This document shows, piece by piece, positions 1,734-13,080 of a DNA stretch of 13,080 nt. The stretch's first letter is position 1, and each line of letters opens with the position of its first letter. The position numbers were made by a program, and so were the translations under genes. The notes under the pieces were generated by a model that made no database searches, was not told the DNA's origin, and worked only from the letters and a program-made list of their open reading frames with translations. The stretch comes from Conexivisphaerales archaeon (GTDB lineage: Archaea; Thermoproteota; Nitrososphaeria; Conexivisphaerales; DTJL01): contig JBEKZX010000040.1 in the NCBI GenBank assembly GCA_049509455.1, forward strand, positions 1 through 13,080. The letters are read 5' to 3'.

Positions 1734-2666
1734 CTGACGTTTCACGGCAAGGCCCCGTGGAAGGTCATCCTCCTAGGCGAGCACTTCGTGGTGCACGGGA
1801 ACCCTGCCCTGGCCGCTGCCCTAGACCGGGGCGTTGAAGCCGAGGCCATCAGCTGCCCCGATGATATCGTCGTTTCGAAGGACTTGGGCCTTGAATGCCG
1901 CGTCAGGGAGCCCTCCGGGCAGCTTAAGCCGGTCGCCGCGGCCCTGCAGAAGCTGCTGGACGACCGGAGCTTGAACGGCGTCAAGGTGACCATAAAGAGT
2001 TCCTTACCTGTGTCAGCCGGCCTGGGTTCCTCCGCCGCCTCTTCGGTGGCCGCGCTGGCCGCCGTGGGCGCCTTCTTCGGCGTGACCGTGAGCCACGACA
2101 CCCTCTTCGACTACGGAATGATATCGGAGAAGCTGGTGCACGGCAACCCTTCGGGAGTCGACGTGTACGTCGCCGTCCACGGCGGCCTCGTGTACTTCAA
2201 GGGTCGTAGGAGGAAGAGCGTGCCTCTCACTCAGCGCTTCCCCATAATGGTCTCTTGCACGGGCATCGAGCGTAACACAGGGGAGCTGGTCTCTCGCGTA
2301 GCCAAGTTCAAGGAGTCGTCGCCGGCTCTTTACAGGACCCTAGCCAAAGCTTCGGAGAAGCTCGTGGAGGACTGCATGAAGGCGCTCGAGAAGGGCGATC
2401 CAGGCGTCCTCCCTCCTTCGATGAACTTCCATCAACAGGCGTTGAAGTCGATGGGAGTCTCCTCTCCCGAGCTGGACTCCCTAGTCAAGGAAGCGAGGCT
2501 GGCCGGTTTTGTGGGTGCCAAGCTGACGGGCAGCGGCTGCATAATCGGATGGCCAGGGACCGCACGCTTCGAGGATTCGTTCGAAGGATTCAACGCCAAA
2601 CACCCAAATAGCTTCATGAGCTACATACCTTCGGAAGGCGTGACCACTTGGGAGACACCGTCGTAG
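1734..2666 (+). CDS. mvk: Mevalonate kinase (resident copy, possibly impaired)
   Basis: GHMP motifs K-V-ILLGEHFVVHG, LPVSAGLGSSAA, HGNPSGVD, GVSSPELD, GAKLTG. The reading frame extends upstream of the tracked ORF (1788) to CTG 1734, with a GGTGA SD at 1723-1727, giving MTFHGKAPWKVILLGEH (310 aa). APWK replaces the usual APGK, and the C-terminal Gly loop is shortened to KLTGSGC. Confidence 0.88.
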   Translation: MTFHGKAPWKVILLGEHFVVHGNPALAAALDRGVEAEAISCPDDIVVSKDLGLECRVREPSGQLKPVAAALQKLLDDRSLNGVKVTIKSSLPVSAGLGSSAASSVAALAAVGAFFGVTVSHDTLFDYGMISEKLVHGNPSGVDVYVAVHGGLVYFKGRRRKSVPLTQRFPIMVSCTGIERNTGELVSRVAKFKESSPALYRTLAKASEKLVEDCMKALEKGDPGVLPPSMNFHQQALKSMGVSSPELDSLVKEARLAGFVGAKLTGSGCIIGWPGTARFEDSFEGFNAKHPNSFMSYIPSEGVTTWETPS

Positions 2667-2841
2667 TCAAGCTGGGCGGCTCGTTCATCATGGAGAAGGA
2701 CGGGCTCTTCACCTTCAGAGAGAAGGAAGTCAAGGAGGCGGTTCCTGCCATGAAGGGCACGGGATGTGACTTCGCCATCATCCATGGCGGCGGCTCCTTT
2801 GGGCACCCCGTTGCCAAGAGGTTCGGCCTTTCGGGGGGCAC
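2458..2841 (+). repeat. Diverged direct repeat, copy A (mvk 3' end plus ipk 5' end)
   Basis: Aligns to 7949-8341. Hand count gives about 62 mismatches over 384 aligned nt plus a 9-nt gap. The last 41 nt (2801-2841 = 8301-8341) are identical. Confidence 0.95.
2648..2841 (+). pseudogene. ipk: Truncated 5' fragment of isopentenyl phosphate kinase
   Basis: MGDTVVVKLGGSF...IHGGGSFGHPVAKRFGLSGG matches the N-terminus of the full ipk at 8148. Homology stops at 2841, and the frame runs into antisense hutI DNA to a stop at 2878. Confidence 0.9.
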
Positions 2842-3600
2842 CACGCCAATAGTGTCCTTCCGCGCCAGCAGCGCGTAATCCTTCTTCGGCGTGGCTATTA
2901 TGTGGTCCGCGGAGACGGCCCCGACCTCGGCAGCTGGCTTCGCCCAGCCGAGCGGGACGACTTCGTCCGCGTGAACCTTTCAACCCGAAGCCCAGCTTCT
3001 TGGCAGCCAGAATAGTGCGCTTCGATTGCGCGACGTCCAAGACCCCCTTCTCGCAGAACACGTTGCAGTATCTAGCAATGCCCGCGTCAGCAACCGCAGG
3101 CAGCATGTCTTCGAAAATGTGGTTAGTGTAATCTTTGGCGTTTTCGAATTCTGGCTAGACTTCGTGAGCCCCCAGGAACGTCGGGACCATGTCGACGCCC
3201 AGCTTCCTTCCTATTTCTGCTGAAGCTTGGAGCATATTCAACTCTCCCTTGATCTCCAAGCAGTAGCCGCTCTTCGCCTCGATGGTAGTCGTTCCGCGGG
3301 TGAGCATCCTCCTTGCCGGCGCGAGCCCGCGAAGACAAGGTCCGTGTGAGCGTCCACGAAGCCCGGGACTACGGCTTTCCCTCCCGCATCGACGGTTTCA
3401 TAGGCCTTGAACTTGGGCGCCTCCAAGCCCTTGCCGGCGTAGAGGATTTTACCGCCCCTGATCACCAGCAGGCCATCTGCCGCAATTGCCGTGTCAGCCA
3501 TGGCCTTGCCTTTCCGCAGGTCGCCAGCCAGCATTGCCAATTGGCCGATGTTCTTCGCAACGAGGTCGCAATCTTGTGTTGGCTTTTGATCGCCGCTCAG
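2842..3600 (-). pseudogene. hutI: Imidazolonepropionase (HutI-like amidohydrolase) pseudogene
   Basis: Stitched translation: NIGQL...VDAGGKAVVPGFVDAHTDLVFAGSR / [internal deletion and frameshift near 3320] / RRMLTRGTTTIEAKSGY...PTFLGAHEV*(TAG 3157-3155)...NVFCEKG...GLK / [+1 frameshift at 2978-2980] / VHADE...GAVSADH...TIGV, cut at the 2842 junction. Probable CTG start at 3600 overlapping the upstream stop (CTGA). Confidence 0.88.
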
Positions 3601-3980
3601 GCCTTCTCGACTGTGCCTGCCTCCGCATTGATTTTCAGCTTGTCGCCAGTCTTTATCTCGGAGATATCAATTCTGTCAACACAGGGTATCCCGCCGAGGA
3701 TTACCCCAGTAGCTACGATGGTCTCCGTTTCCTTGTTGATGATGGCTTTCGGCGCCACCTTGTTCGCCGCCAATCCGTATATTACGTACGAGCCAACGGT
3801 CGAGCCCTTTCCGCAGGGGAAGACCAGTATCTTTCCCTTGACGCTCTTTCCCTCCAATTCGTGGCCTTTCTCGATGACGACGCCCGTCTTGGGGTTCACG
3901 CAGCCATAGAATCCTAGCGGTTCCTTCGAGACGAGCGCCTCGCCCTCGACCTTACCGGGATAGATTGACCTTCCCTTCAT
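3597..3980 (-). CDS. Phosphomevalonate dehydratase small subunit (AcnX swivel domain, DUF126 family)
   Basis: MKGRSIYPGKVEGEALVS...LGFYGCVNPKTG...GHEL.GKSVKGKILVFPCGKGSTVGSYVIY...ETIVATG. True start ATG 3980 (ATGA overlap with the large-subunit stop, GGAGGTGA SD), 127 aa. The tracked ORF from 4124 is over-extended. Confidence 0.9.
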   Translation of the reverse strand: MKGRSIYPGKVEGEALVSKEPLGFYGCVNPKTGVVIEKGHELEGKSVKGKILVFPCGKGSTVGSYVIYGLAANKVAPKAIINKETETIVATGVILGGIPCVDRIDISEIKTGDKLKINAEAGTVEKA

Positions 3981-5164
3981 TCCGTCACCTCCTTCACTAG
4001 GTCGTCGACGCTCTTGAACATCACGCTCTGCTTGCAGAAGCCAGGCAGATAGTTCGCGGCCTTTCCGGAGTTCACGCCTGTCGTCTGATAGCCCATGTCC
4101 TCGATGGGCGATACGACCATGCATGTATCAGCAACGACCTTACCTCCGGCTTTCTCTATGGTATGAACAAGACCCATCCTGGCGGCGCAATCCTTCGTCA
4201 TCCTCGATGTGCATATCCACAGCTGCTTCTTGACCTTCCGGCCCTTCAGCTTCTCAGCCAATTCGGTTATCTCGCGCAAGGACGCGTGCGGGCAACCGAG
4301 TATGACGATGTCGGCAACCTTTCCGGTGTTCAGCTTGGCATAGGTCTCTTCCAGTTCTTTTTGGCCGATTTCGACCTTTTCCAGCCCGGCAGTCTCCCAG
4401 AGGTGTGCTTCGGGGGTCTGGTCTTTTACATGGTACATCGCGACCGCTCCCGAGGCGGCCATCGCAGCCCCCAACGCCTTCAACTTGTCCGTGTCCGACT
4501 CCGGCAGCCCGACGAAATAGGGGTTCTTATTCCTCACGATCTTACCAACGTGGTAACCCAACGCACCGTAGTCCGCGCTAGATTTCAGCTCGGCTTTCAC
4601 GTCAATCAGAAAGTCCGGCTTCCGGTTCACGTCCAGGTGCAAACCGTAGTGGGGCGTGACCCCGCACAGAGCGGCAGCCAGTGCGCTCGGGCCGCCCTCG
4701 CGGTTCGTCCGCGCGCCGATGACGGAATTCGAGAATGCGATGGCGGAAGATTCTGACCAGGCTATGTGTTCCCGGTACCTCGGCAGGTTGCCAGCGAGGT
4801 AGGGCGTGCAGGTAGCGCTCGTCACGATGCCCATCTTCCCGAAAGCGTCCATGATGCGCGTTTGCTTCTCCGCGAACGCCTTGGGTATGCCCATGGCTTT
4901 CCAGTCGTCCATGTCCATGCCTGCGGGGTTGAGGAAGGTGACGACCTTCACTCTCGCACCCTTCTTTGCCAAGTCCTCTAGGAACTCCATGCCGGGGTCC
5001 TCGATGGACTTGTAGGACACGCCAGCCACCTGGACCGAGCCAACGGGCACCATCTTGTCTGCTTCATAGATGTCGCCGAGCCTAACGAGGAGGCGCAGCA
5101 TCCTCTCCAAGACTTCGCCGTGCTCCCCTGCCAGCGTCTTTTCCTCCTCCTTGGTCAGATACAT
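3977..5164 (-). CDS. Phosphomevalonate dehydratase large subunit (aconitase X catalytic domain, DUF521 family)
   Basis: MYLTKEEE..L.GE.G start, GVSYKSI, NPAG, TCTPY, WSESSA, RTNREGGPSALAAA, LGCPHAS, DTCMVV. The three Fe-S-ligand-type Cys motifs are present. ATG 5164 has a GGAGCTGA SD (395 aa). Confidence 0.9.
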   Translation of the reverse strand: MYLTKEEEKTLAGEHGEVLERMLRLLVRLGDIYEADKMVPVGSVQVAGVSYKSIEDPGMEFLEDLAKKGARVKVVTFLNPAGMDMDDWKAMGIPKAFAEKQTRIMDAFGKMGIVTSATCTPYLAGNLPRYREHIAWSESSAIAFSNSVIGARTNREGGPSALAAALCGVTPHYGLHLDVNRKPDFLIDVKAELKSSADYGALGYHVGKIVRNKNPYFVGLPESDTDKLKALGAAMAASGAVAMYHVKDQTPEAHLWETAGLEKVEIGQKELEETYAKLNTGKVADIVILGCPHASLREITELAEKLKGRKVKKQLWICTSRMTKDCAARMGLVHTIEKAGGKVVADTCMVVSPIEDMGYQTTGVNSGKAANYLPGFCKQSVMFKSVDDLVKEVTE

Positions 5165-5472
5165 TTTATCAGCTCCTTCCAACTCGCAACCAGTGGTTCT
5201 ATTTCATCCTTGCTTGCATTGTCCACGTGCACGCCGCCGACGGCGGCCACGGTCCGACCGTACTTCTTGCTCGCTGCCTCGGCCATCGGTTTCAGAACCA
5301 TATAGTCATGATGGTTGCCCGGCTTGACGACGCGCGCTTTCTTCCCAGGCTCCGTGACTACGGCAGTACCAACGTGGAGCCTCTCCCCACCGCCGAGGAT
5401 GTAGACCAAGTCCTCGCCGACCTTCTCCTTCCTCAGCCAGACCTTGCACTCCCCCTTACCGTAGGTATTCAT
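5155..5472 (-). CDS. lpdD: Small LpdD-like protein (putative prenylated-FMN chaperone of UbiD enzymes)
   Basis: 105 aa with the pattern G.DL...GG...HVG...HHD...GGVHVDNASKDEI, which matches my recollection of Lactiplantibacillus plantarum LpdD (GYDLL..TGG..PHIG...HKD...AGIHVNQITKAQI). It overlaps the ubiD stop (17 nt) and the dehydratase start (10 nt). The family call is from memory, not from a search. Confidence 0.65.
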   Translation of the reverse strand: MNTYGKGECKVWLRKEKVGEDLVYILGGGERLHVGTAVVTEPGKKARVVKPGNHHDYMVLKPMAEAASKKYGRTVAAVGGVHVDNASKDEIEPLVASWKELIKCI

Positions 5473-6769
5473 CGAGGTTCACGCTAGAATACTGGATCTT
5501 CTCGTATTCCTTTGGCCCGGCTTCAAAAGGCATCGTCGCGTCGATGCCGACCTTGGTTGTCAGCGCCTTCTTGCCAGAATGGTCCGCAGACGGGTCCAGT
5601 GAGGAGCCGGGCTCCTTCTCCTTAATGACGAGCCTCTTGTCACCCTGGAACCTCGTGGCGATTGCCCACTCGACGGCGTTCATATCGTAAATGTCAACAT
5701 CATCGTCGATTATCACGACGTGCTTCATCGATTTGTGGCCCCTGAAGGCAGCCTCGATGGCGTTTTTGCCGTCCTCTGGCTTCTCCTTCTCTATCTGGAC
5801 GATGCCGTGCAGCCATGAACCTCCTCCGATGGTGATGAGGACGTTCTTGCACTTGCAGACCTTGCTCACTTCATCGTAAATCGTGGGCTCCTTCGGCATG
5901 CCCATCAGTATCTTGTGCTCCAACCTGCCAGGCAGCAAGCATTGGTACATCGCGTCCTTCCTGTGAGTCAGGCAGTCGACGACGAATACCGGCTCCTTCC
6001 TCTCGAAGTCCCGCATCTCTGTCAGGTCGACGAATGGCCCCTCCTTGTCCACGTCTTTCGTGAGCCGCCCCTCGAGGACGAACTCCGACTCCGCCGGGAC
6101 TTCCAGGTCCTTCGTCACGCACTTGACCAGCTTCGTCTCGTCCAGGGCGTTGGCGATTGCCAGCTCGTCGACTCCCGGTGGCGGCCCGAGCGACGCCGCG
6201 ACCATCACTGGAACAGAGTTTCCGATGCATACCACCATTTCCAAATCCCCCTGCAGCTTATCGTAGGTCGTCCTGGTCTGGCGCCCGGGTACAAGCCTCG
6301 CCGTGAACTTGTTCTTGCCGTGGAACATCAGCCTATGGAAGGCCATGTTGCGCCCCGTTTCCGGGTCCTTTATGATTGAGCATGTCGCCGTCGCGTACGG
6401 CCCGCCATCCCCTGGAAGGTGCGTCAGCAGCGGCAGCATCGAGAGGTCGGGATCCTTGACGACGACTTCCTGGCATGGCCCCTCGCTCGCCACCTCCGGA
6501 GGCACTGGCCTGCGCAGAGCCTCTACGAGCCTGAGGAGCATCTTATCCTTTGTAGTGTCGAGCCCCTCAGCGATGATATCCCTCGATGAAGTGATGCCGC
6601 CGAAGACCGGGAATCTGCTGCCCTGGACCTTCTCGAAAATCGCGGGCTTCTCACCCATCGTGTTCAGGACGTTGCCCAGCTCGAACTGCGGGCTCACCTT
6701 CCTGCTTATCCTGGTCAGCTTTCCCTCCGACTCCAGCCTCTTGAGGAAACTCCTTAGATTCATATTCAC
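5456..6769 (-). CDS. UbiD-family prFMN-dependent decarboxylase, likely anhydromevalonate phosphate decarboxylase
   Basis: Motifs FHRL, ESEFVLEG, EGPFVD, GGGSWLH..VQI.K, AAFRGH.SMKHVVI.DDDVDI, VEWAIATRFQGD, GSSLDPS, KVGIDAT. The substrate call rests on co-location with mvk and both AcnX subunits. Start is GTG 6769 or ATG 6763. Confidence 0.88.
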   Translation of the reverse strand: MNMNLRSFLKRLESEGKLTRISRKVSPQFELGNVLNTMGEKPAIFEKVQGSRFPVFGGITSSRDIIAEGLDTTKDKMLLRLVEALRRPVPPEVASEGPCQEVVVKDPDLSMLPLLTHLPGDGGPYATATCSIIKDPETGRNMAFHRLMFHGKNKFTARLVPGRQTRTTYDKLQGDLEMVVCIGNSVPVMVAASLGPPPGVDELAIANALDETKLVKCVTKDLEVPAESEFVLEGRLTKDVDKEGPFVDLTEMRDFERKEPVFVVDCLTHRKDAMYQCLLPGRLEHKILMGMPKEPTIYDEVSKVCKCKNVLITIGGGSWLHGIVQIEKEKPEDGKNAIEAAFRGHKSMKHVVIIDDDVDIYDMNAVEWAIATRFQGDKRLVIKEKEPGSSLDPSADHSGKKALTTKVGIDATMPFEAGPKEYEKIQYSSVNLDEYLR

Positions 6770-7746
6770 ACCCCTATCGTCGTCTTCAAAGCCTTGAATC
6801 CTGCCTTCTCCATCGCTGCGGCGACCTTCTCCTGGGTCGCCTTCTCCGGCGTCAGCGCCACCATGTATCCACCGAGCCCACCGCCGGTCATCTTCGCCCC
6901 CGCGGCCCCGTTCTTCCGCGCTATCCCGACGAGCTCGTCCAGCATCGGATGCGAGACCTCAATCTGCTGCAGAAGGTAGTGGTTCTCGTCCATCAGCCGC
7001 CCAACCTCAGCGACGTCGTACCTGTCGAGCGCTGCACGCGCCTTGCCCGCCAGCTCGCGGGCCTTCGCGAAGATAGCCTCGTATTTCTCGGGCTGCCCGG
7101 CCTTGCGCTTCCTCACACCAGCAACTGCGGCCTCGGTGTTCGTTGTCAGAAGGGTATTGCCCATGACGATGCGCAACGGCTCCTTGATCTTCAGCTGCTC
7201 CATCGTATTCGGCCCTCCCTGGAGGTTCTTGACAAACCATAGAAGGCCGCCGTAGGTCGAAGCGGTGTTGTCTATGCCAGAAGGCGTCCCAGCGTAGGCG
7301 CTGTCGCCGATGAATGCTATCTCGTTGATTTTCTTATCGTCGAAATCGAGTTTGAACTCTTCGTTTAGGGCTCTCGCCACTGAAACGCAAACAGCGGCGC
7401 TCGCCCCCACCCCGCCGACGGCGATGAGGTCGCCCCCCAGAAGAATCTTAAGAGGATTCTTCCTCGGGTCGACGCCCGCAGCCTGGAACACCAATTCTAT
7501 TGACTTCTTCTGCTGAGGGAACTTCTCCGCCTTGTAGCCCGGATTCGCGGGCCTTTCATCTTCCATCACCCACCCATCGCCTGCCATGGAGCCCTCCTTG
7601 CCCGAAGGAGCTGGTAGCTGTCCTTTCACGCGCTCAACGGTAGCCACGGTAGTCGAGTTTATGGCTGAGGCGACGGACGGTATGCCGTAGACCACGAAAT
7701 GCTCGTTGAACAAGATGACCTTGCCGTATCCAGAGCCTTTACCCAC
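6766..7746 (-). CDS. mvk: Second mevalonate kinase, divergent (trypanosomatid-like motifs)
   Basis: GYGKVILFNEHFVVYG, DERPANPGY, GGVGASAA, GTPSGIDNTASTYGGL, VSHPMLDELV, GAKMTGGGLGG. GTG start with GGAGGGG SD. Clearly different in sequence from the resident mvk. Confidence 0.85.
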   Translation of the reverse strand: MGKGSGYGKVILFNEHFVVYGIPSVASAINSTTVATVERVKGQLPAPSGKEGSMAGDGWVMEDERPANPGYKAEKFPQQKKSIELVFQAAGVDPRKNPLKILLGGDLIAVGGVGASAAVCVSVARALNEEFKLDFDDKKINEIAFIGDSAYAGTPSGIDNTASTYGGLLWFVKNLQGGPNTMEQLKIKEPLRIVMGNTLLTTNTEAAVAGVRKRKAGQPEKYEAIFAKARELAGKARAALDRYDVAEVGRLMDENHYLLQQIEVSHPMLDELVGIARKNGAAGAKMTGGGLGGYMVALTPEKATQEKVAAAMEKAGFKALKTTIGV

Positions 7747-7825
7747 TCTCGACCCCTCCAGCGCGCTACCCCTCCGCCGACCGTTCGGAAGGCGCTACGC
7801 GGGTCACGGTGGCATATCGTCGAGT

Positions 7826-7846
7826 TCGATAAAAACGTTATTGCGA
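7826..7846 (-). promoter_or_regulatory. Putative BRE/TATA promoter for the inserted cassette
   Basis: The minus strand reads CGCAATAACG-TTTTTATC, the main AT-rich patch of the intergenic region, about 85 nt upstream of the mvk2 GTG. Confidence 0.4.
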
Positions 7847-7856
7847 CGGACCAGCG

Positions 7857-7948
7857 CTAGTTTTCCCTCTGGTGGTCTTCCAGCCTCTTCCGCTCGTCCA
7901 TCGTGAAGATGACCCCACGGTGGGGGGAGCGCACCGGCTCGGCCACAA
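7857..7948 (-). pseudogene. Possible 3' stub of an unidentified gene cut at the right junction
   Basis: Open frame ...VAEPVRSPHRGVIFTMDERKRLEDHQREN* ends in TAG at 7859-7857, just upstream of the putative cassette promoter. No family recognised. Confidence 0.3.
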
Positions 7949-8166
7949 TCTCCTCTCCCGAACTGGACTTCCTGGTCAACGAAGCGAGGTTAGCCGGCTT
8001 CGCGGGGGCCAAGCTGACCGGCGCCGGCCGAGGGGGATGCATAATCGGCTGGCCGGGGACGGGCCTCTGGGAAGCCGCCTTCGAGGGCTTCCGCTCCAAA
8101 CACCCAAATAGCTTCATCAGTTACATACCTTCGGAAGGCGTGACCACTTGGGAGACCCCGTCGTAG
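7949..8166 (+). pseudogene. mvk: C-terminal fragment of a resident-type mevalonate kinase
   Basis: SSPELDFLVNEARLAGFAGAKLTGAGRGGCIIGWPG...SYIPSEGVTTWETPS* is about 72 codons with the 5' three quarters of the gene missing. The frame is intact and the Gly loop is canonical. Confidence 0.9.
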
Positions 8167-8341
8167 TCAAGCTGGGCGGCTCATTCATAACACAGAAGGA
8201 CAGGCTTTTCACTTTCAGGGAGAAGGAGGTCAAGGAGGCCGTCACCGCCCTGAAGGGCACAGGGTTGAGTCTCGCCATTGTCCACGGCGGAGGCTCCTTC
8301 GGGCACCCCGTTGCCAAGAGGTTCGGCCTTTCGGGGGGCAC
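7949..8341 (+). repeat. Diverged direct repeat, copy B (mvk 3' end plus ipk 5' end)
   Basis: Aligns to 2458-2841 with an offset of 5491, then 5500 after the extra 9 nt CGAGGGGGA at 8029-8037. Confidence 0.95.
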
Positions 8342-8906
8342 ATTCAGCAAGTCGTCCGCCGGGGTGTCGGAGACCAGGCTGGCCATGCACAACCTCTCGT
8401 ACCTTCTCTACATCCAGCTCGGGACCGCCGGATTCAAACCCTACCTCATCAACTCGTCATCGCTCATCAGGATGGATGGTGGCCCCCTTGCCGGATACTC
8501 TACATTGCTGACGGAATTGGTGAGGACAGGGCTGACGCCGCTTACGCACGGCGACGTCCAGCTCTTCCAAGAAGGATACAGGATCGTCAGCGGCGACCAC
8601 CTGTCCTACCTCTTCTGCAAGGGCTTGAAGCCCTCTAGGATGGTCTACGTCTTCGACCAGCCGGGGTTACTGAAGACCGCCGGCGACCCATCCAGCGTCA
8701 TCGAAGAGTTGACAATCGCCGCTGCCAAGGAGCTCCGCTTCGAAGGGGCCGAGGACGCGACGGGAGGGATAACGACGAAGATCAGGACCGCCTGCGAAAT
8801 TGCTTCGCTGGGAGTCGAAACATGTTTTGTTAGCGGGTTCGACAGAGATGACCTTATTAAAGCCGTAACTGGTGAGAAGTTCAAGGGAACCATACTGAAA
8901 AGGTAG
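8148..8906 (+). CDS. ipk: Isopentenyl phosphate kinase (amino acid kinase family)
   Basis: VVKLGGS, VHGGGSFGH (IPK-type His), HGD, IVSGD, DATGGITTKI. TTG start lies within the mvk 3' end, and the gene sits between mvk and fni. Confidence 0.9.
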   Translation: MGDPVVVKLGGSFITQKDRLFTFREKEVKEAVTALKGTGLSLAIVHGGGSFGHPVAKRFGLSGGTFSKSSAGVSETRLAMHNLSYLLYIQLGTAGFKPYLINSSSLIRMDGGPLAGYSTLLTELVRTGLTPLTHGDVQLFQEGYRIVSGDHLSYLFCKGLKPSRMVYVFDQPGLLKTAGDPSSVIEELTIAAAKELRFEGAEDATGGITTKIRTACEIASLGVETCFVSGFDRDDLIKAVTGEKFKGTILKR

Positions 8907-8912
8907 TCTGCC

Positions 8913-9986
8913 TTGGGAATCGAAGAAAGGAAGGATAGCCATTTGGACATCTGCCTCCACGAGGACGTCGGCGCGAAGCTTGAGACGACCCTCTTTGAAG
9001 ACGTGTACCTCGTTCACCAAGCCCTCACCGAGCTCGACCTTGGCTCGGTCGACCTTTCCACCACGTTCCTCGGCAAGAAGCTAGAGGTCCCTCTTCTCAT
9101 TGACTCGATGACGGGGGGAACCACGATGGCGATGGAGGTCAACAAGACCCTCGCGCAGCTCGCCGAGAGGAATAAGATGGGGATTGGCGTGGGAAGCCAG
9201 AGGGCTGGCCTCACCAAGCCCGCCGTCGCAGAGACCTATTCTGTCGTCCGAAAGGAGGCTCCCAACGCCTTCGTGTTTGGCAACCTTGGCGGAGCTCAGC
9301 TCGTCCGGGGCCTCACTGTGGAGGACGCCAGGAAGGCCGTCGAGATGATACAGGCTGACGCCCTAGCCATCCACCTCAACCCGCTACAGGAGGCAGTCCA
9401 GATGGGCGGAGAGGCCACGTACAAAGGGATCATCGACAAAATCGCCGAATTAGCTCACGGCCTGGACGTCCCCATCATCGTCAAAGAAGTGGGCGCGGGA
9501 ATCTCCAGAGAGACGGCCATTCGCCTCTCGTTGGCCGGGGTGAAGGCTATCAACGTCTCGGGTCTGGGCGGGACCAGCTGGGCCGGAGTCGAAAGCATCA
9601 GGGCAAGACGGAAGGGTGAAGTGTCCGTGGCCGAGCTGGGCGAAGCCTTCTGGGACTGGGGGATCCCGACCGCCGCAGCGCTGTTGGAGGTCAAGGGGAG
9701 GGCGAACGTTCCGCTGATAGCATCTGGAGGGATCAGGAACGGCATCGAAGCCGCGAAGGCCATCGCCCTGGCGGCCGACGTCGTCGCCATGGCCAGGCCC
9801 TTCCTGTACGCGGCCTCGAATGGTGGAATCGACGGAGCGCAGCACATGACTGACGCGTTCGTGTCTCAGCTGAAGCTAGCTGCCTTCCTGACGGGTTCGG
9901 GCAGCATCGCCTCTCTCAAGAGGGCGCGGCTTGTCCTGACGGGGAAGCTCCTCGAATGGAAGAACAGCCTTGGTGACCGGCCCTGA
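8913..9986 (+). CDS. fni: Type 2 (FMN-dependent) isopentenyl-diphosphate delta-isomerase
   Basis: RKDSHL, SMTGG, GVGSQR, GNLG, HLNPLQEAVQ, KEVGAG, GGTSW, WGIPT, SGGIRNG, KAIALAA. TTG start. Confidence 0.95.
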   Translation: MGIEERKDSHLDICLHEDVGAKLETTLFEDVYLVHQALTELDLGSVDLSTTFLGKKLEVPLLIDSMTGGTTMAMEVNKTLAQLAERNKMGIGVGSQRAGLTKPAVAETYSVVRKEAPNAFVFGNLGGAQLVRGLTVEDARKAVEMIQADALAIHLNPLQEAVQMGGEATYKGIIDKIAELAHGLDVPIIVKEVGAGISRETAIRLSLAGVKAINVSGLGGTSWAGVESIRARRKGEVSVAELGEAFWDWGIPTAAALLEVKGRANVPLIASGGIRNGIEAAKAIALAADVVAMARPFLYAASNGGIDGAQHMTDAFVSQLKLAAFLTGSGSIASLKRARLVLTGKLLEWKNSLGDRP

Positions 9987-10969
9987 GTCTTCAGGAAGAG
10001 ATCAAGAGGGTAGCCCTGAAGGTCAACGCCTACATGGATAAGAAGATCAGGGGGGACCCGCAGGTCCTCTACGACGCCTCTCTACACCTAATCAATGCTG
10101 GCGGGAAGCGCCTAAGGCCCTTCATGACTCTGAAGTTCCATGGCTTGTACAGCGAAGACGAGTCGGCCGTGATTCCCGCCGCCGCAGCCGTGGAGCTAGT
10201 GCACAACTTCACACTGATTCATGATGACATCATGGACAGGGACGACATAAGGCACGGAGTGCCGACGGTCCACAAGAGGTTCGGGGAACCTCTGGCGATC
10301 CTGGCCGGAGATGTGCTGTTCGCCGAGGCCTTCAAGCTCGTCGCAGAGACGCCGTCGCTGGCGGGCGACTACCGCAGGCTGGACGAAGCCGTCGAGCTGC
10401 TGGCCGAGTCACTCATAGTGCTGTGCGAAGGACAAGCCATCGACGTCAAGGCGGCCACGGACGAGCTTTACACTGAGAAGCAGTATTACGAAATCATCAA
10501 GAAGAAGACAGCGGCCCTCTTCGAGGCGGCCTCGGTCATGGGCGTGATCGCAGGAGGAGGCGGGAAGGAGGACATGGTAAACGCTCGGATGTACGCACGT
10601 AACGTAGGCATAGGCTTTCAGATAGTGGACGACCTTCTCGGAGTCGTGGGCGACTCGGCGGTCACGGGGAAGCCTGTGGGCAACGACCTCAAGGAGGGGA
10701 AGAAGACGCTTCCGATATTCATGGCCGTCCAGAGGAGCAGGGAAAGGGACCGTACCCTCCTGCTCAAGGTGTGGGGTAACGTAGAGGCTAAACAGGAGGA
10801 GGTGGAGGCGGCGGTAGAGGTCCTTCGAAGGCTTGAGATCGACAAGGCCGCCCGGAACCTCGCCCTCGATCACGTAGAGAAGGCCGTTGATTACCTCGGC
10901 AAGCTCCCCGGGGAAGACAAGCACTGGCTTGCCGACTTGGCCCGCTACGTCGTGGAAAGAAAGATATAG
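9983..10969 (+). CDS. Short-chain polyprenyl (geranylgeranyl) diphosphate synthase, archaeal type I
   Basis: GGKRLRP, FARM HNFTLIHDDIMD (Phe five residues before the first Asp, typical of type I GGPPS), RHGVPTVH, GQAID, KTAALF, SARM FQIVDD. The frame extends upstream of ATG 10034 to CTG 9983 (CTGA overlap with the fni stop, GGTGA SD 6 nt upstream), 328 aa. Confidence 0.92.
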   Translation: MSLQEEIKRVALKVNAYMDKKIRGDPQVLYDASLHLINAGGKRLRPFMTLKFHGLYSEDESAVIPAAAAVELVHNFTLIHDDIMDRDDIRHGVPTVHKRFGEPLAILAGDVLFAEAFKLVAETPSLAGDYRRLDEAVELLAESLIVLCEGQAIDVKAATDELYTEKQYYEIIKKKTAALFEAASVMGVIAGGGGKEDMVNARMYARNVGIGFQIVDDLLGVVGDSAVTGKPVGNDLKEGKKTLPIFMAVQRSRERDRTLLLKVWGNVEAKQEEVEAAVEVLRRLEIDKAARNLALDHVEKAVDYLGKLPGEDKHWLADLARYVVERKI

Positions 10970-10999
10970 AAACATGCGGACAATGCCCCTAGTCATACG

Positions 11000-12751
11000 T
11001 TGACCTTCACGGAGCAGGTCCTTGACGCAATCAGGAGGAACGCCCTAGCCAACGCCTTCCGCCACGGGGGCAAGCCTGACGTCGGGTCGACACTGGGCAA
11101 AACCATCTCCGACTTTCCGACTCTCAAGAAGGATGCCAAGGAGCTCATGACCACGGTGAGCCGCGTCTGCGGCGAGGTTGACAGGCTCAGCCTGGCGCAG
11201 CAGGAGGAGGAGCTCCGCAGGAGGTACCCCGAGGCGCTCGAGGAGAAGAAACAGGCCAAGGAGGAGAGGAAGCTCCCGCCGTTGCCGAACTTCGCGAAGT
11301 ACAAGGAAATCAGGACGCGGTTCGCGCCCAACCCCGACAGCGTTCTCCACCTTGGTTCGGCCAGGGCAATCATACTCAGCCACGACTACGCCAGGATGTA
11401 CGGAGGGAAGTTCGTCCTGCGCTTCGAAGACACCGATCCCCGGCTGAAAAAGTCGTCCCTTGTGTTCTACGATTACATCTTGCAAGACCTGGGCTGGCTC
11501 GGCTGCAGCCCAGACGAGGAATACATCCAGAGCGACCGTATGGAGATCTACTACAAGTTCGCCGAGGAGCTGATATCAAAGGGAGGAGCATACGTTTGCA
11601 CCTGCGACCAAGACACCTTCCATACGCTGGTCACTAGGAGAGAGGCTTGCCCATGCCGCGGACTGAGCGTGAAAAATAACCTCGGACGATGGGCGAAGAT
11701 GTTGGATGGCACCTACGGAGAGGGCGAGGCGGTGATGAGGGTGAAGACGGAGCTCAACCATCCCAACCCGGCCGTGAGGGATTGGCCCGCCCTGCGCATC
11801 ATTGATACCCGGAGGCACCGGCACCCTCGCACCGGCTCGAAGTATCGAGCATGGCCTCTATACAACTGGGCGGCAGGCCTCGACGACCACCTCATGGGCG
11901 TGACTCACATAATCAGGGGACAGGAGCACTACACCAACATGGTGAGGCAGAAGTTCTTCTACAAGACCCTCGGCTGGGACTATCCCGAGGCAATCCACTA
12001 CGGGAGGCTGAAGATCGAAGGAGGGGTGCTCAGCAAGAGCAAGATAGAGGCAGGGCTACGTCAGAAGCTCTACGAAGGGTACGACGACCCACGCCTGGCC
12101 ACGCTAAGGGCATTGAAGAGGCGTGGAATCTCGGTCGAGGCGATACGCCGCCTGATATATGATGTCGGACCGAAGGGGACCGACGCCATCGTCAGTTGGG
12201 ACAACTTGCTGGCGGCGAATAGGCAGATCATAGACAAGAGGAGCTCCAGGTACTTCGCTGTGGTGGACAAAGGGGTCCCGCTGGTGGTGAAGGGGCTCAC
12301 ACGGGACATACGAGTGGAGATGCCCCGTCATCCGGAGATGTCGGACAGGCCAAACCGGGTCTTCGATGTCCCGACTGTTGGCGGGGAGGCACACTTAATC
12401 GTGAACGGGTCGGACGTCCCAACCATTACCGAGGGGGGGGTGGTGCGCCTAATGGGCCTGATGAACGTCAAGGGCGGGAGAGCCTTCGCCGGCGGACTGG
12501 CCGTCGACTTCGATAGCCTGGGCGTCGAGGAGGCAAGGCGCGCCAAAGCCCAGGCCATCCAGTGGCTGGTGTCGGGAAATACCGCCGAACTCTCCGTGAA
12601 GATGAGTGACGCCTCGGTGGCGACAGGCCTTGCCGAGGCGCAAATAACAGAAGAGAAGGTCGATGCTACGGTGCAGCTGGAGAGGCTCTTCTTCGCCCGG
12701 ATTGACTCCGTCGAACCCGGGAAGGTGGGCCTATACTTCACTTCACGTTAA
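11000..12751 (+). CDS. gltX: Glutamate--tRNA ligase, archaeal type
   Basis: RFAPNPD..LHLGSAR (HIGH motif), [11 protein letters not shown]...CPCR, VTHIIRG.EH, LSKS (KMSKS motif), DPRLATL, VQLER..FARID. TTG 11000 is the only available start after the in-frame stop at 10967-10969. Confidence 0.96.
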
Positions 12752-12770
12752 CGGCCCCGGTACGAATTGT

Positions 12771-12784
12771 GAAAAGTTTAAAAC
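12771..12784 (+). promoter_or_regulatory. Putative BRE/TATA promoter of rpl7ae
   Basis: GAAAAG-TTTAAAA, a good match to the archaeal BRE plus TATA, about 45 nt upstream of ATG 12826. Confidence 0.65.
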
Positions 12785-12803
12785 AGGTTCTCTGCACGGT
12801 AGA

Positions 12804-12833
12804 GGTCAAGGGTGAGTATGAAAAGATGACCCC
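12804..12833 (+). promoter_or_regulatory. Candidate K-turn/K-loop-like element over the rpl7ae SD and start codon
   Basis: GGUCAAGGGUGAGUAUGAAAAGAUGACCCC contains a box D-like GUGA/AUGA and a box C-like GAUGA enclosing the AUG, closable by GGGU/ACCC or GGUCA/UGACC. The geometry is imperfect. Confidence 0.35.
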
Positions 12834-13080
12834 GTCGGAAAACGCGGCTGGCAAACCATACTTCGTGAAGTTCGAGACGCCGAAGGAGCTGGCCGAAGCC
12901 GCCTATGAAGCGGTACGTCAAGCTAGGCAGACAGGGAAGGTCAAGAAGGGGACGAACGAGACGACCAAGGCCATAGAGAGAGGCACGGCCAAACTCGTCG
13001 TCGTCTCCGAGGACGTAGAGCCGCCCGAAGTTGTCGCGCATCTCCCGATGCTCTGCACCGAAAGGAAGGTGCCCTTCCTC
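12826..13080 (+). CDS. rpl7ae: 50S ribosomal protein L7Ae (partial, runs off the window end)
   Basis: [22 protein letters not shown]...[50 protein letters not shown]. Not in the ORF track because it has no stop in the window. GGTGAG SD at 12811-12816. Confidence 0.96.

Follow-up and report, generated by a model that had tools for sequence, protein, structure and literature searches.

An LpdD-family gene in an imported mevalonate-pathway cassette of a Conexivisphaerales archaeon: a candidate prFMNH2 chaperone

LpdD is a small, dimeric protein with a PAC3/4-like fold, i.e. a six-stranded sheet and two helices, and it binds reduced prenylated FMN (prFMNH2). Another group of small proteins connected to UbiD-type decarboxylases consists of the small subunits VdcD, BsdD and EcdD of the phenolic acid decarboxylases, where the VdcD/BsdD type is a short zinc-ribbon protein with four cysteines that is needed for enzyme activity. 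In Lactiplantibacillus plantarum, LpdD (PDB 8PO5, 8PZO, 8PZH, 8P4W) has been described as a prFMNH2-binding chaperone that is co-transcribed with the UbiX homologue LpdB, and the metal ion present in its crystals is coordinated by His35, His61 and Asp63 (PMC10865409). According to the same study the active decarboxylase does not contain it, and a hand-over of prFMNH2 to the apo-decarboxylase was proposed from work with the UbiD of E. coli (PMC10865409). PhdC and YclD are prFMN maturases with a flavin-reductase fold and a catalytic, oxidative role (PMC13040415).

Published accounts of the mevalonate pathway in archaea name only mevalonate kinase (MVK), phosphomevalonate dehydratase (PMDh), the anhydromevalonate phosphate decarboxylase (AMPD), IPK and the prFMN synthase UbiX. 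In M. mazei the genes for AMPD (MM_1526) and the two PMDh subunits (PMDh-L, MM_1525; PMDh-S, MM_1524) are immediate neighbors, and the pathway functions in E. coli given only UbiX and AMPD (PMC12547664), so that the decarboxylase reaction does not generally depend on an LpdD-type factor. We found no literature that connects LpdD with the mevalonate pathway of archaea or describes an MVK-UbiD-LpdD-AcnX arrangement; archaea and mevalonate go unmentioned in the LpdD paper (PMC10865409), and the searchable literature on the archaeal pathway lists no LpdD-type factor. The first-pass annotation of the DNA described below had stated that no cofactor chaperone is known to be described for this pathway, and our search of the literature agrees with it.

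An LpdD-like gene within a mevalonate operon

The window, i.e. the whole stretch of 13,080 nucleotides that was analyzed, stems from a Conexivisphaerales archaeon (genome G000), a non-ammonia-oxidising member of the Nitrososphaeria, as also indicated by the label of a near-identical locus (L001). On its minus strand it carries a densely packed run of genes in the order MVK-UbiD-ORF-AcnXL-AcnXS:

6766..7746, minus strand: mevalonate kinase of the cassette discussed below, the second MVK in the window (TIGR00549, 210 bits)
5456..6769, minus strand: UbiD-family decarboxylase, taken as AMPD (three UbiD Pfam domains and TIGR00148; located between the MVK and AcnX genes)
5155..5472, minus strand: LpdD-family gene, candidate prFMNH2 chaperone, 105 aa (PF21758, profile match to LpdD in the PDB, AF2/Foldseek)
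3977..5164, minus strand: AcnX large subunit, i.e. phosphomevalonate dehydratase large subunit, PMDh-L (PF04412, E 1.4e-160)
3597..3980, minus strand: AcnX small (swivel) subunit, PMDh-S (PF01989, E 1.6e-32; NF003046, 177 bits)

With a UbiD, both subunits of a type-II AcnX and an MVK, all identified by Pfam and NCBIfam, the run has the composition of an archaeal modified mevalonate operon. The UbiD is the only one in the genome (a single PF01977 match) and is taken to be the AMPD, judging by its domains and neighbors. A conserved methionine suggests that its true start lies at 6763; the AcnX-L ATG at 5164 is conserved among sister genomes, and the NF003046 match of AcnX-S covers residues 49-173 of a long ORF. 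The host has one copy of UbiX, which is unlinked to the operon and adjoins ileS.

The middle gene of the run had originally been noted as a 105-aa ORF that overlaps both ubiD and the dehydratase gene and contains His/Asp/Gly motifs, and both observations proved accurate. Its ATG (5472-5470) lies 17 nt within the 3' end of UbiD, the stop codon of which is found at 5458-5456, and its own stop codon (5157-5155) lies 10 nt within the AcnX-L gene. The motifs are LGGGERLHVG (residues 26-35), HHD (54-56) and GGVHVDNASKDEI (79-91). Together with the ATGA formed by the start of AcnX-S and the stop of AcnX-L, these overlaps give a layout which is typical of translational coupling. The ORF is not a chance one, since it matches PF21758 and has 217 homologues of similar length at E<=1e-3, and since its position and overlap are unchanged in 80 out of 80 related loci (the best 80 of 158).

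PF21758 is the single clear Pfam match of the protein (73.6 bits, where the cut-off is 27; E 1.4e-20, residues 6-103), and no other Pfam or NCBIfam match was obtained, including to the VdcD/BsdD type. The family was labelled 'PAC_bac' ('proteasome assembling chaperone-like') in older Pfam and is called 'LpdD_chaperone' in a newer release, and some homologues in JGI carry the automatic label 'gallate decarboxylase subunit D'. A single-sequence phmmer search of the PDB returned spurious thermonuclease matches only, and a family profile was required to reach LpdD. When built from an alignment of 28 archaeal homologues, such a profile matched the LpdD chains 8P4W, 8PZH and 8PO5 at E 7e-6, the next best other match having E 0.047. 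In the profile alignment the LpdD metal ligands H35, H61 and D63 stand opposite H33, H54 and D56 of the archaeal protein. H54 and D56 occur in every one of the 28 homologues, and the conservation of H33 is 90% or more. An AF2 model (pLDDT 82, pTM 0.71) was compared with the PDB using Foldseek, and the six best matches were all LpdD chains (TM 0.78-0.81, rmsd 1.8-3.1 A, E ~1e-6). By profile and by predicted structure, the product is thus assigned to the LpdD family, as the first-pass annotation had supposed.

The two proteins share their Pfam family, their fold (TM ~0.8), the aligned H/H/D residues, a small size (105 aa compared to ~120-140 aa in LpdD) and a genomic tie to the UbiX/UbiD system. 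They differ in that their identity is only ~20%, the present protein is archaeal, and its gene is coupled to that of UbiD, whereas the LpdD gene is coupled to that of UbiX. Furthermore, its presumed client is an aliphatic decarboxylase of isoprenoid synthesis, acting on anhydromevalonate phosphate, and not an aromatic acid decarboxylase. With the VdcD/BsdD/EcdD subunits it has in common being a small protein encoded beside a UbiD enzyme, but it contains only two cysteines (C9 and C104), shows no similarity to the zinc ribbon, and its gene is lost in sister species that retain the decarboxylase. Like PhdC and YclD, the LpdD-like protein is predicted to assist in decarboxylase activation, as an accessory factor within the UbiD/UbiX system; its fold is however another one, the catalytic oxidative role is on the PhdC/YclD side, and no similarity was detected. 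The proteasome chaperones of yeast and human, i.e. Pba3/Pba4 and PAC3/PAC4 (PDB 2Z5B, 2Z5E, 5WTQ), share the general beta-sandwich/two-helix fold at TM 0.45-0.62 (0.55-0.62 for Pba3/4), but lack the H/H/D site and significant sequence similarity, and the present gene has a mevalonate-operon and not a proteasome context. A complex prediction that used the UbiD alignment and that of the LpdD-like protein gave a score of 0.00, which counts neither for nor against an interaction.

Conserved gene order and co-occurrence with one decarboxylase clade

By scanning species-representative genomes for relatives, we obtained 158 loci, of which the best 80, nearly all labelled Thermoplasmatota, were kept. 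UbiD was found directly upstream with the same overlap in all 80, and wherever the contig was long enough the order was MVK-UbiD-LpdD-AcnXL-AcnXS. The expected linkage of homologues to ubiD, acnX and mvk was accordingly recovered throughout these best 80 loci. UbiX was found within the LpdD operon in 5 loci in all, namely directly after AcnX-S in four of them and, in one metagenomic contig, in the configuration Memo-UbiX-UbiD-LpdD-(74 aa)-AcnXL-AcnXS.

Co-occurrence was assessed in a sample of 301 Thermoplasmatota genomes, with at least 61% identity to the window UbiD as the threshold for the UbiD clade. The LpdD-like gene was present in 40 of these genomes and a clade UbiD in 42, with both in 39. 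Among the mismatches, two had the UbiD cut by or near a contig end, and in one the contig began with the LpdD-like gene, the UbiD having been lost at the cut; the true exception is G372, in which the clade MVK-UbiD pair is not followed by the small gene. The LpdD-like gene was absent from all of the ~228 Thermoplasmatota genomes in which the best UbiD reached no more than 48% identity to that of the window. Therefore, the small gene accompanies one decarboxylase clade and not the archaeal pathway generally, which agrees with the M. mazei arrangement of AMPD and PMDh genes with nothing between. From the close coupling of the genes and their co-occurrence within one clade, the client would be the AMPD of this clade.

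A distant homologue (30-36% identity) was found in 24 out of 25 genomes of one Thermoproteota family with small genomes (1.2-1.5 Mb). In 10 of the 12 loci fetched it is placed tail-to-tail with UbiX at a distance of at most ~90 bp, and in all 12 the distance is at most 4 kb. Other PF21758 members lie between UbiX and a bacterial-type UbiD. Such adjacency to UbiX in other lineages connects the LpdD family with the cofactor and not with any one enzyme. Further contexts of PF21758 are beside an AFOR gene and C-terminal to a class II aldolase/adducin domain (the metagenomic 298-aa protein P0169), the latter fusion showing that the use of the family is not confined to UbiD/UbiX.

Two other observations were made in these genomes. 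In G536, G496 and G540 (Thermoplasmatota), a single in-frame TAG or TGA occurs inside otherwise full-length, ~70%-identical UbiD genes, which could be due to recoding (e.g. pyrrolysine, as in Methanomassiliicoccales), assembly error or pseudogene formation. G353, which has the MVK-UbiD-LpdD-AcnX operon on a complete 1.8-Mb chromosome (CP070712.1), gave no match to PF02441 (UbiX/CoaC flavoprotein).

Import of the operon into a native isoprenoid cluster

The operon is situated between two direct repeats of ~380 bp, which bound 5.1 kb (about 2835-7948) and duplicate the native junction of MVK and IPK:

2458..2834, plus strand: left direct repeat, comprising the 3' end of the native MVK and a 5' end of IPK-like sequence (repeat families D1 and D2)
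7949..8334, plus strand: right direct repeat, comprising a truncated 3' fragment of MVK and the start of IPK (83-84% identical to the left)

The native cluster reads rpS2-Memo-MVK-[cassette]-IPK-IDI2-GGPP synthase-GluRS, and in two genomes of the same genus, G302 and G303, the window segments 141-2832 and 7949-13079 are contiguous and the cassette is absent. The UbiD of the cassette is 66-73% identical to Thermoplasmatota proteins, compared to 36-38% for the UbiD found in relatives of the host from its genus and family. In these relatives the UbiD gene forms a pair with that for an AcnX small subunit, and no LpdD gene accompanies it. Between G000 and its sister species G304, the cassette genes have a dS of 0.057-0.096, versus 0.98-1.19 for the flanking housekeeping genes and an intermediate 0.48 for IPK. 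Hence the two lineages received the cassette, or exchanged it with each other, long after their divergence. No native-type UbiD is left in either G000 or G304. The whole MVK-AMPD-LpdD-PMDh(L,S) operon is thus an imported cassette within the native isoprenoid cluster, and it replaced the native UbiD-AcnXS pair.

GC content fails to mark the cassette (0.56-0.61 inside compared to 0.59-0.62 outside), so the case for a foreign origin rests on synteny, identity and dS. Mis-binning of the window contig (C76) was considered and rejected, as the cassette occupies an identical site in the sister genome, where the contig measures 576 kb, and as the window flanks match other genomes of the genus.

Two smaller segments of the window also deserve mention. 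Between the left repeat and the cassette, ~650 bp (2743-3395) contain ORFs without Pfam match and are absent from G304. At 89-182, ~85 nt upstream of rpS2 recur in more than 10 places in G304 with 82-97% identity, and this element may be a short dispersed repeat or promoter-like.

Apparent decay of the cassette copy and the probable function of the protein

Comparison of the LpdD-like gene in G000 and G304 revealed 1 synonymous and ~13 nonsynonymous differences, in addition to two in-frame TAG codons in G304. This pattern departs from that of the cassette neighbors, whose omega is 0.14-0.23 (Fisher's test, p 9e-5). The G304 copy also has the replacements G29R and D56E at invariant positions, and in a third species, G301, the 5' two-thirds of the gene are deleted, with a 3' remnant of ~100 nt left between UbiD and AcnX-L. 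That the TAG codons are recoded or sequencing errors is unlikely, given the two replacements in the same copy and the deletion in the third species. When the replacements were polarised against the family alignment, about half (~6-7) turned out to be derived on the G000 branch, including K8E, L51P, Y55H, I63M and L93P, and a 96%-conserved cysteine, Cys98, is lost in both copies (C98W). The cassette LpdD-like gene thus appears to be decaying in the genus, with no visible constraint.

A second PF21758 gene, besides the ORF at 5155-5472, is present in the host:

C119:13680-14084 (L083:4681-5085), minus strand: native PF21758 paralogue of 134 aa (100 bits, H...HKE motif)

It is intact in G000, G302, G303 and G304, and LpdD was its only match in a search of the PDB. 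The neighbors are arcadin-1, a DSP phosphatase and a molybdenum hydroxylase, with no linkage to UbiD or UbiX.

In our view the best reading of the LpdD-like protein is that of a prFMN-loading helper for the mevalonate-pathway decarboxylase, because of the conserved operon, the tracking of one decarboxylase clade and the adjacency to UbiX in another archaeal family. It is fairly probable that the protein is an LpdD-family prFMNH2 chaperone for AMPD in its home lineage, of which an imported, redundant and drifting copy is found here. Most likely, the protein would take prFMNH2 from UbiX in the home lineage, i.e. one Thermoplasmatota decarboxylase clade, and would then pass it to the apo-decarboxylase or stabilise it. 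In the present host the paralogue would substitute for the cassette copy, leaving the latter redundant and drifting; the losses in G304 and G301 are compatible with a helper whose role the host paralogue can take over, and we infer the replacement itself, as we do the binding of prFMNH2 and AMPD as the client. Speaking against the chaperone reading are the ~20% identity to LpdD, the M. mazei pathway that runs in E. coli on UbiX and AMPD alone, the occurrence of PF21758 in contexts unrelated to UbiD, including that of the host paralogue, and, for the G000 copy, the excess of nonsynonymous differences. The original suggestion of a pathway component that had escaped description is supported, in that the protein is a putative accessory factor for which no describing paper was found; it would be a dispensable factor and not a core enzyme of the pathway, and its gene is confined to one decarboxylase clade.

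A more radical view of the G000 ORF, and a serious contender although not the one we would favor, is that it is open but functionally dead, a pseudogene in the making that is carried along by the cassette. With ~13 nonsynonymous differences to a single synonymous one, the gene may indeed no longer function, and the replacements on the G000 branch at conserved positions, the shared C98W, the broken copy in G304 and the deletion in G301 all fit this. However, G000 has kept an open frame, the H/H/D triad and every one of the 19 residues that are invariant in the family, both overlaps for translational coupling are preserved, the AF2 model is confident and the substitution counts are small. The copy may still work, but purifying selection on it is not in evidence.

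It is improbable that the protein is an obligate, stoichiometric small subunit of the clade decarboxylase, in the manner of VdcD for VdcC. The conserved 17-nt overlap with UbiD implies coupled and about equimolar synthesis, and the near one-to-one co-occurrence with a single UbiD clade would be expected of such a subunit. The gene is nevertheless dispensable in the genus, being broken in G304, where the sole UbiD remains under purifying selection (omega 0.23), and deleted in G301, which argues against an obligate subunit; G372 likewise has the UbiD without the gene. LpdD itself lies outside the active decarboxylase in L. plantarum (PMC10865409), and there is no similarity to the zinc-ribbon VdcD/BsdD type. 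UbiD-LpdD fusions were not found, which counts weakly against a subunit, as the search for fusions with UbiD or UbiX, in which long candidates crowd out true relatives, gave a single questionable protein of 267 aa, encoded by a contig of 878 bp. Still less probable is a PAC3/PAC4-like chaperone that helps to assemble, for example, UbiD oligomers or AcnX heterodimers and takes no part in cofactor handling, as hinted at by the Pba3/4 and PAC3/4 fold resemblance and the older Pfam name, since the present protein is structurally much closer to LpdD than to Pba3/4 and conserves the metal triad of LpdD, and since the gene is found beside that of the cofactor synthase UbiX, and not UbiD, in other lineages.

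Returning to the prFMN-loading helper, a bolder version can be put forward tentatively, in which a dedicated prFMN-loader co-evolved with an AMPD clade that is inefficient at loading its own cofactor, the two travel in a mobile 'lower mevalonate' cassette, and the loader copy becomes redundant after transfer. If this is true, the decay beside the host paralogue would represent a natural complementation experiment, with LpdD-family proteins being interchangeable cofactor chaperones, and the MVK/PMDh/decarboxylase/LpdD cassette would be self-contained and able to replace a host's native decarboxylase across phyla.

The LpdD family was already named in Pfam; what is new here is the cross-phylum transfer of the cassette and the evidence from natural knockouts. 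The latter, with the helper lost while the decarboxylase is kept, is natural genetic evidence for an accessory factor and not a subunit. An LpdD-type gene is coupled to the decarboxylase throughout one clade, suggesting that certain AMPDs require assistance in acquiring their cofactor. This bears on the engineering of the ATP-saving archaeal mevalonate pathway in bacteria, as well as on the maturation of UbiD enzymes, especially in anaerobes. Lastly, the locus demonstrates that a whole mevalonate module moves between archaeal phyla.
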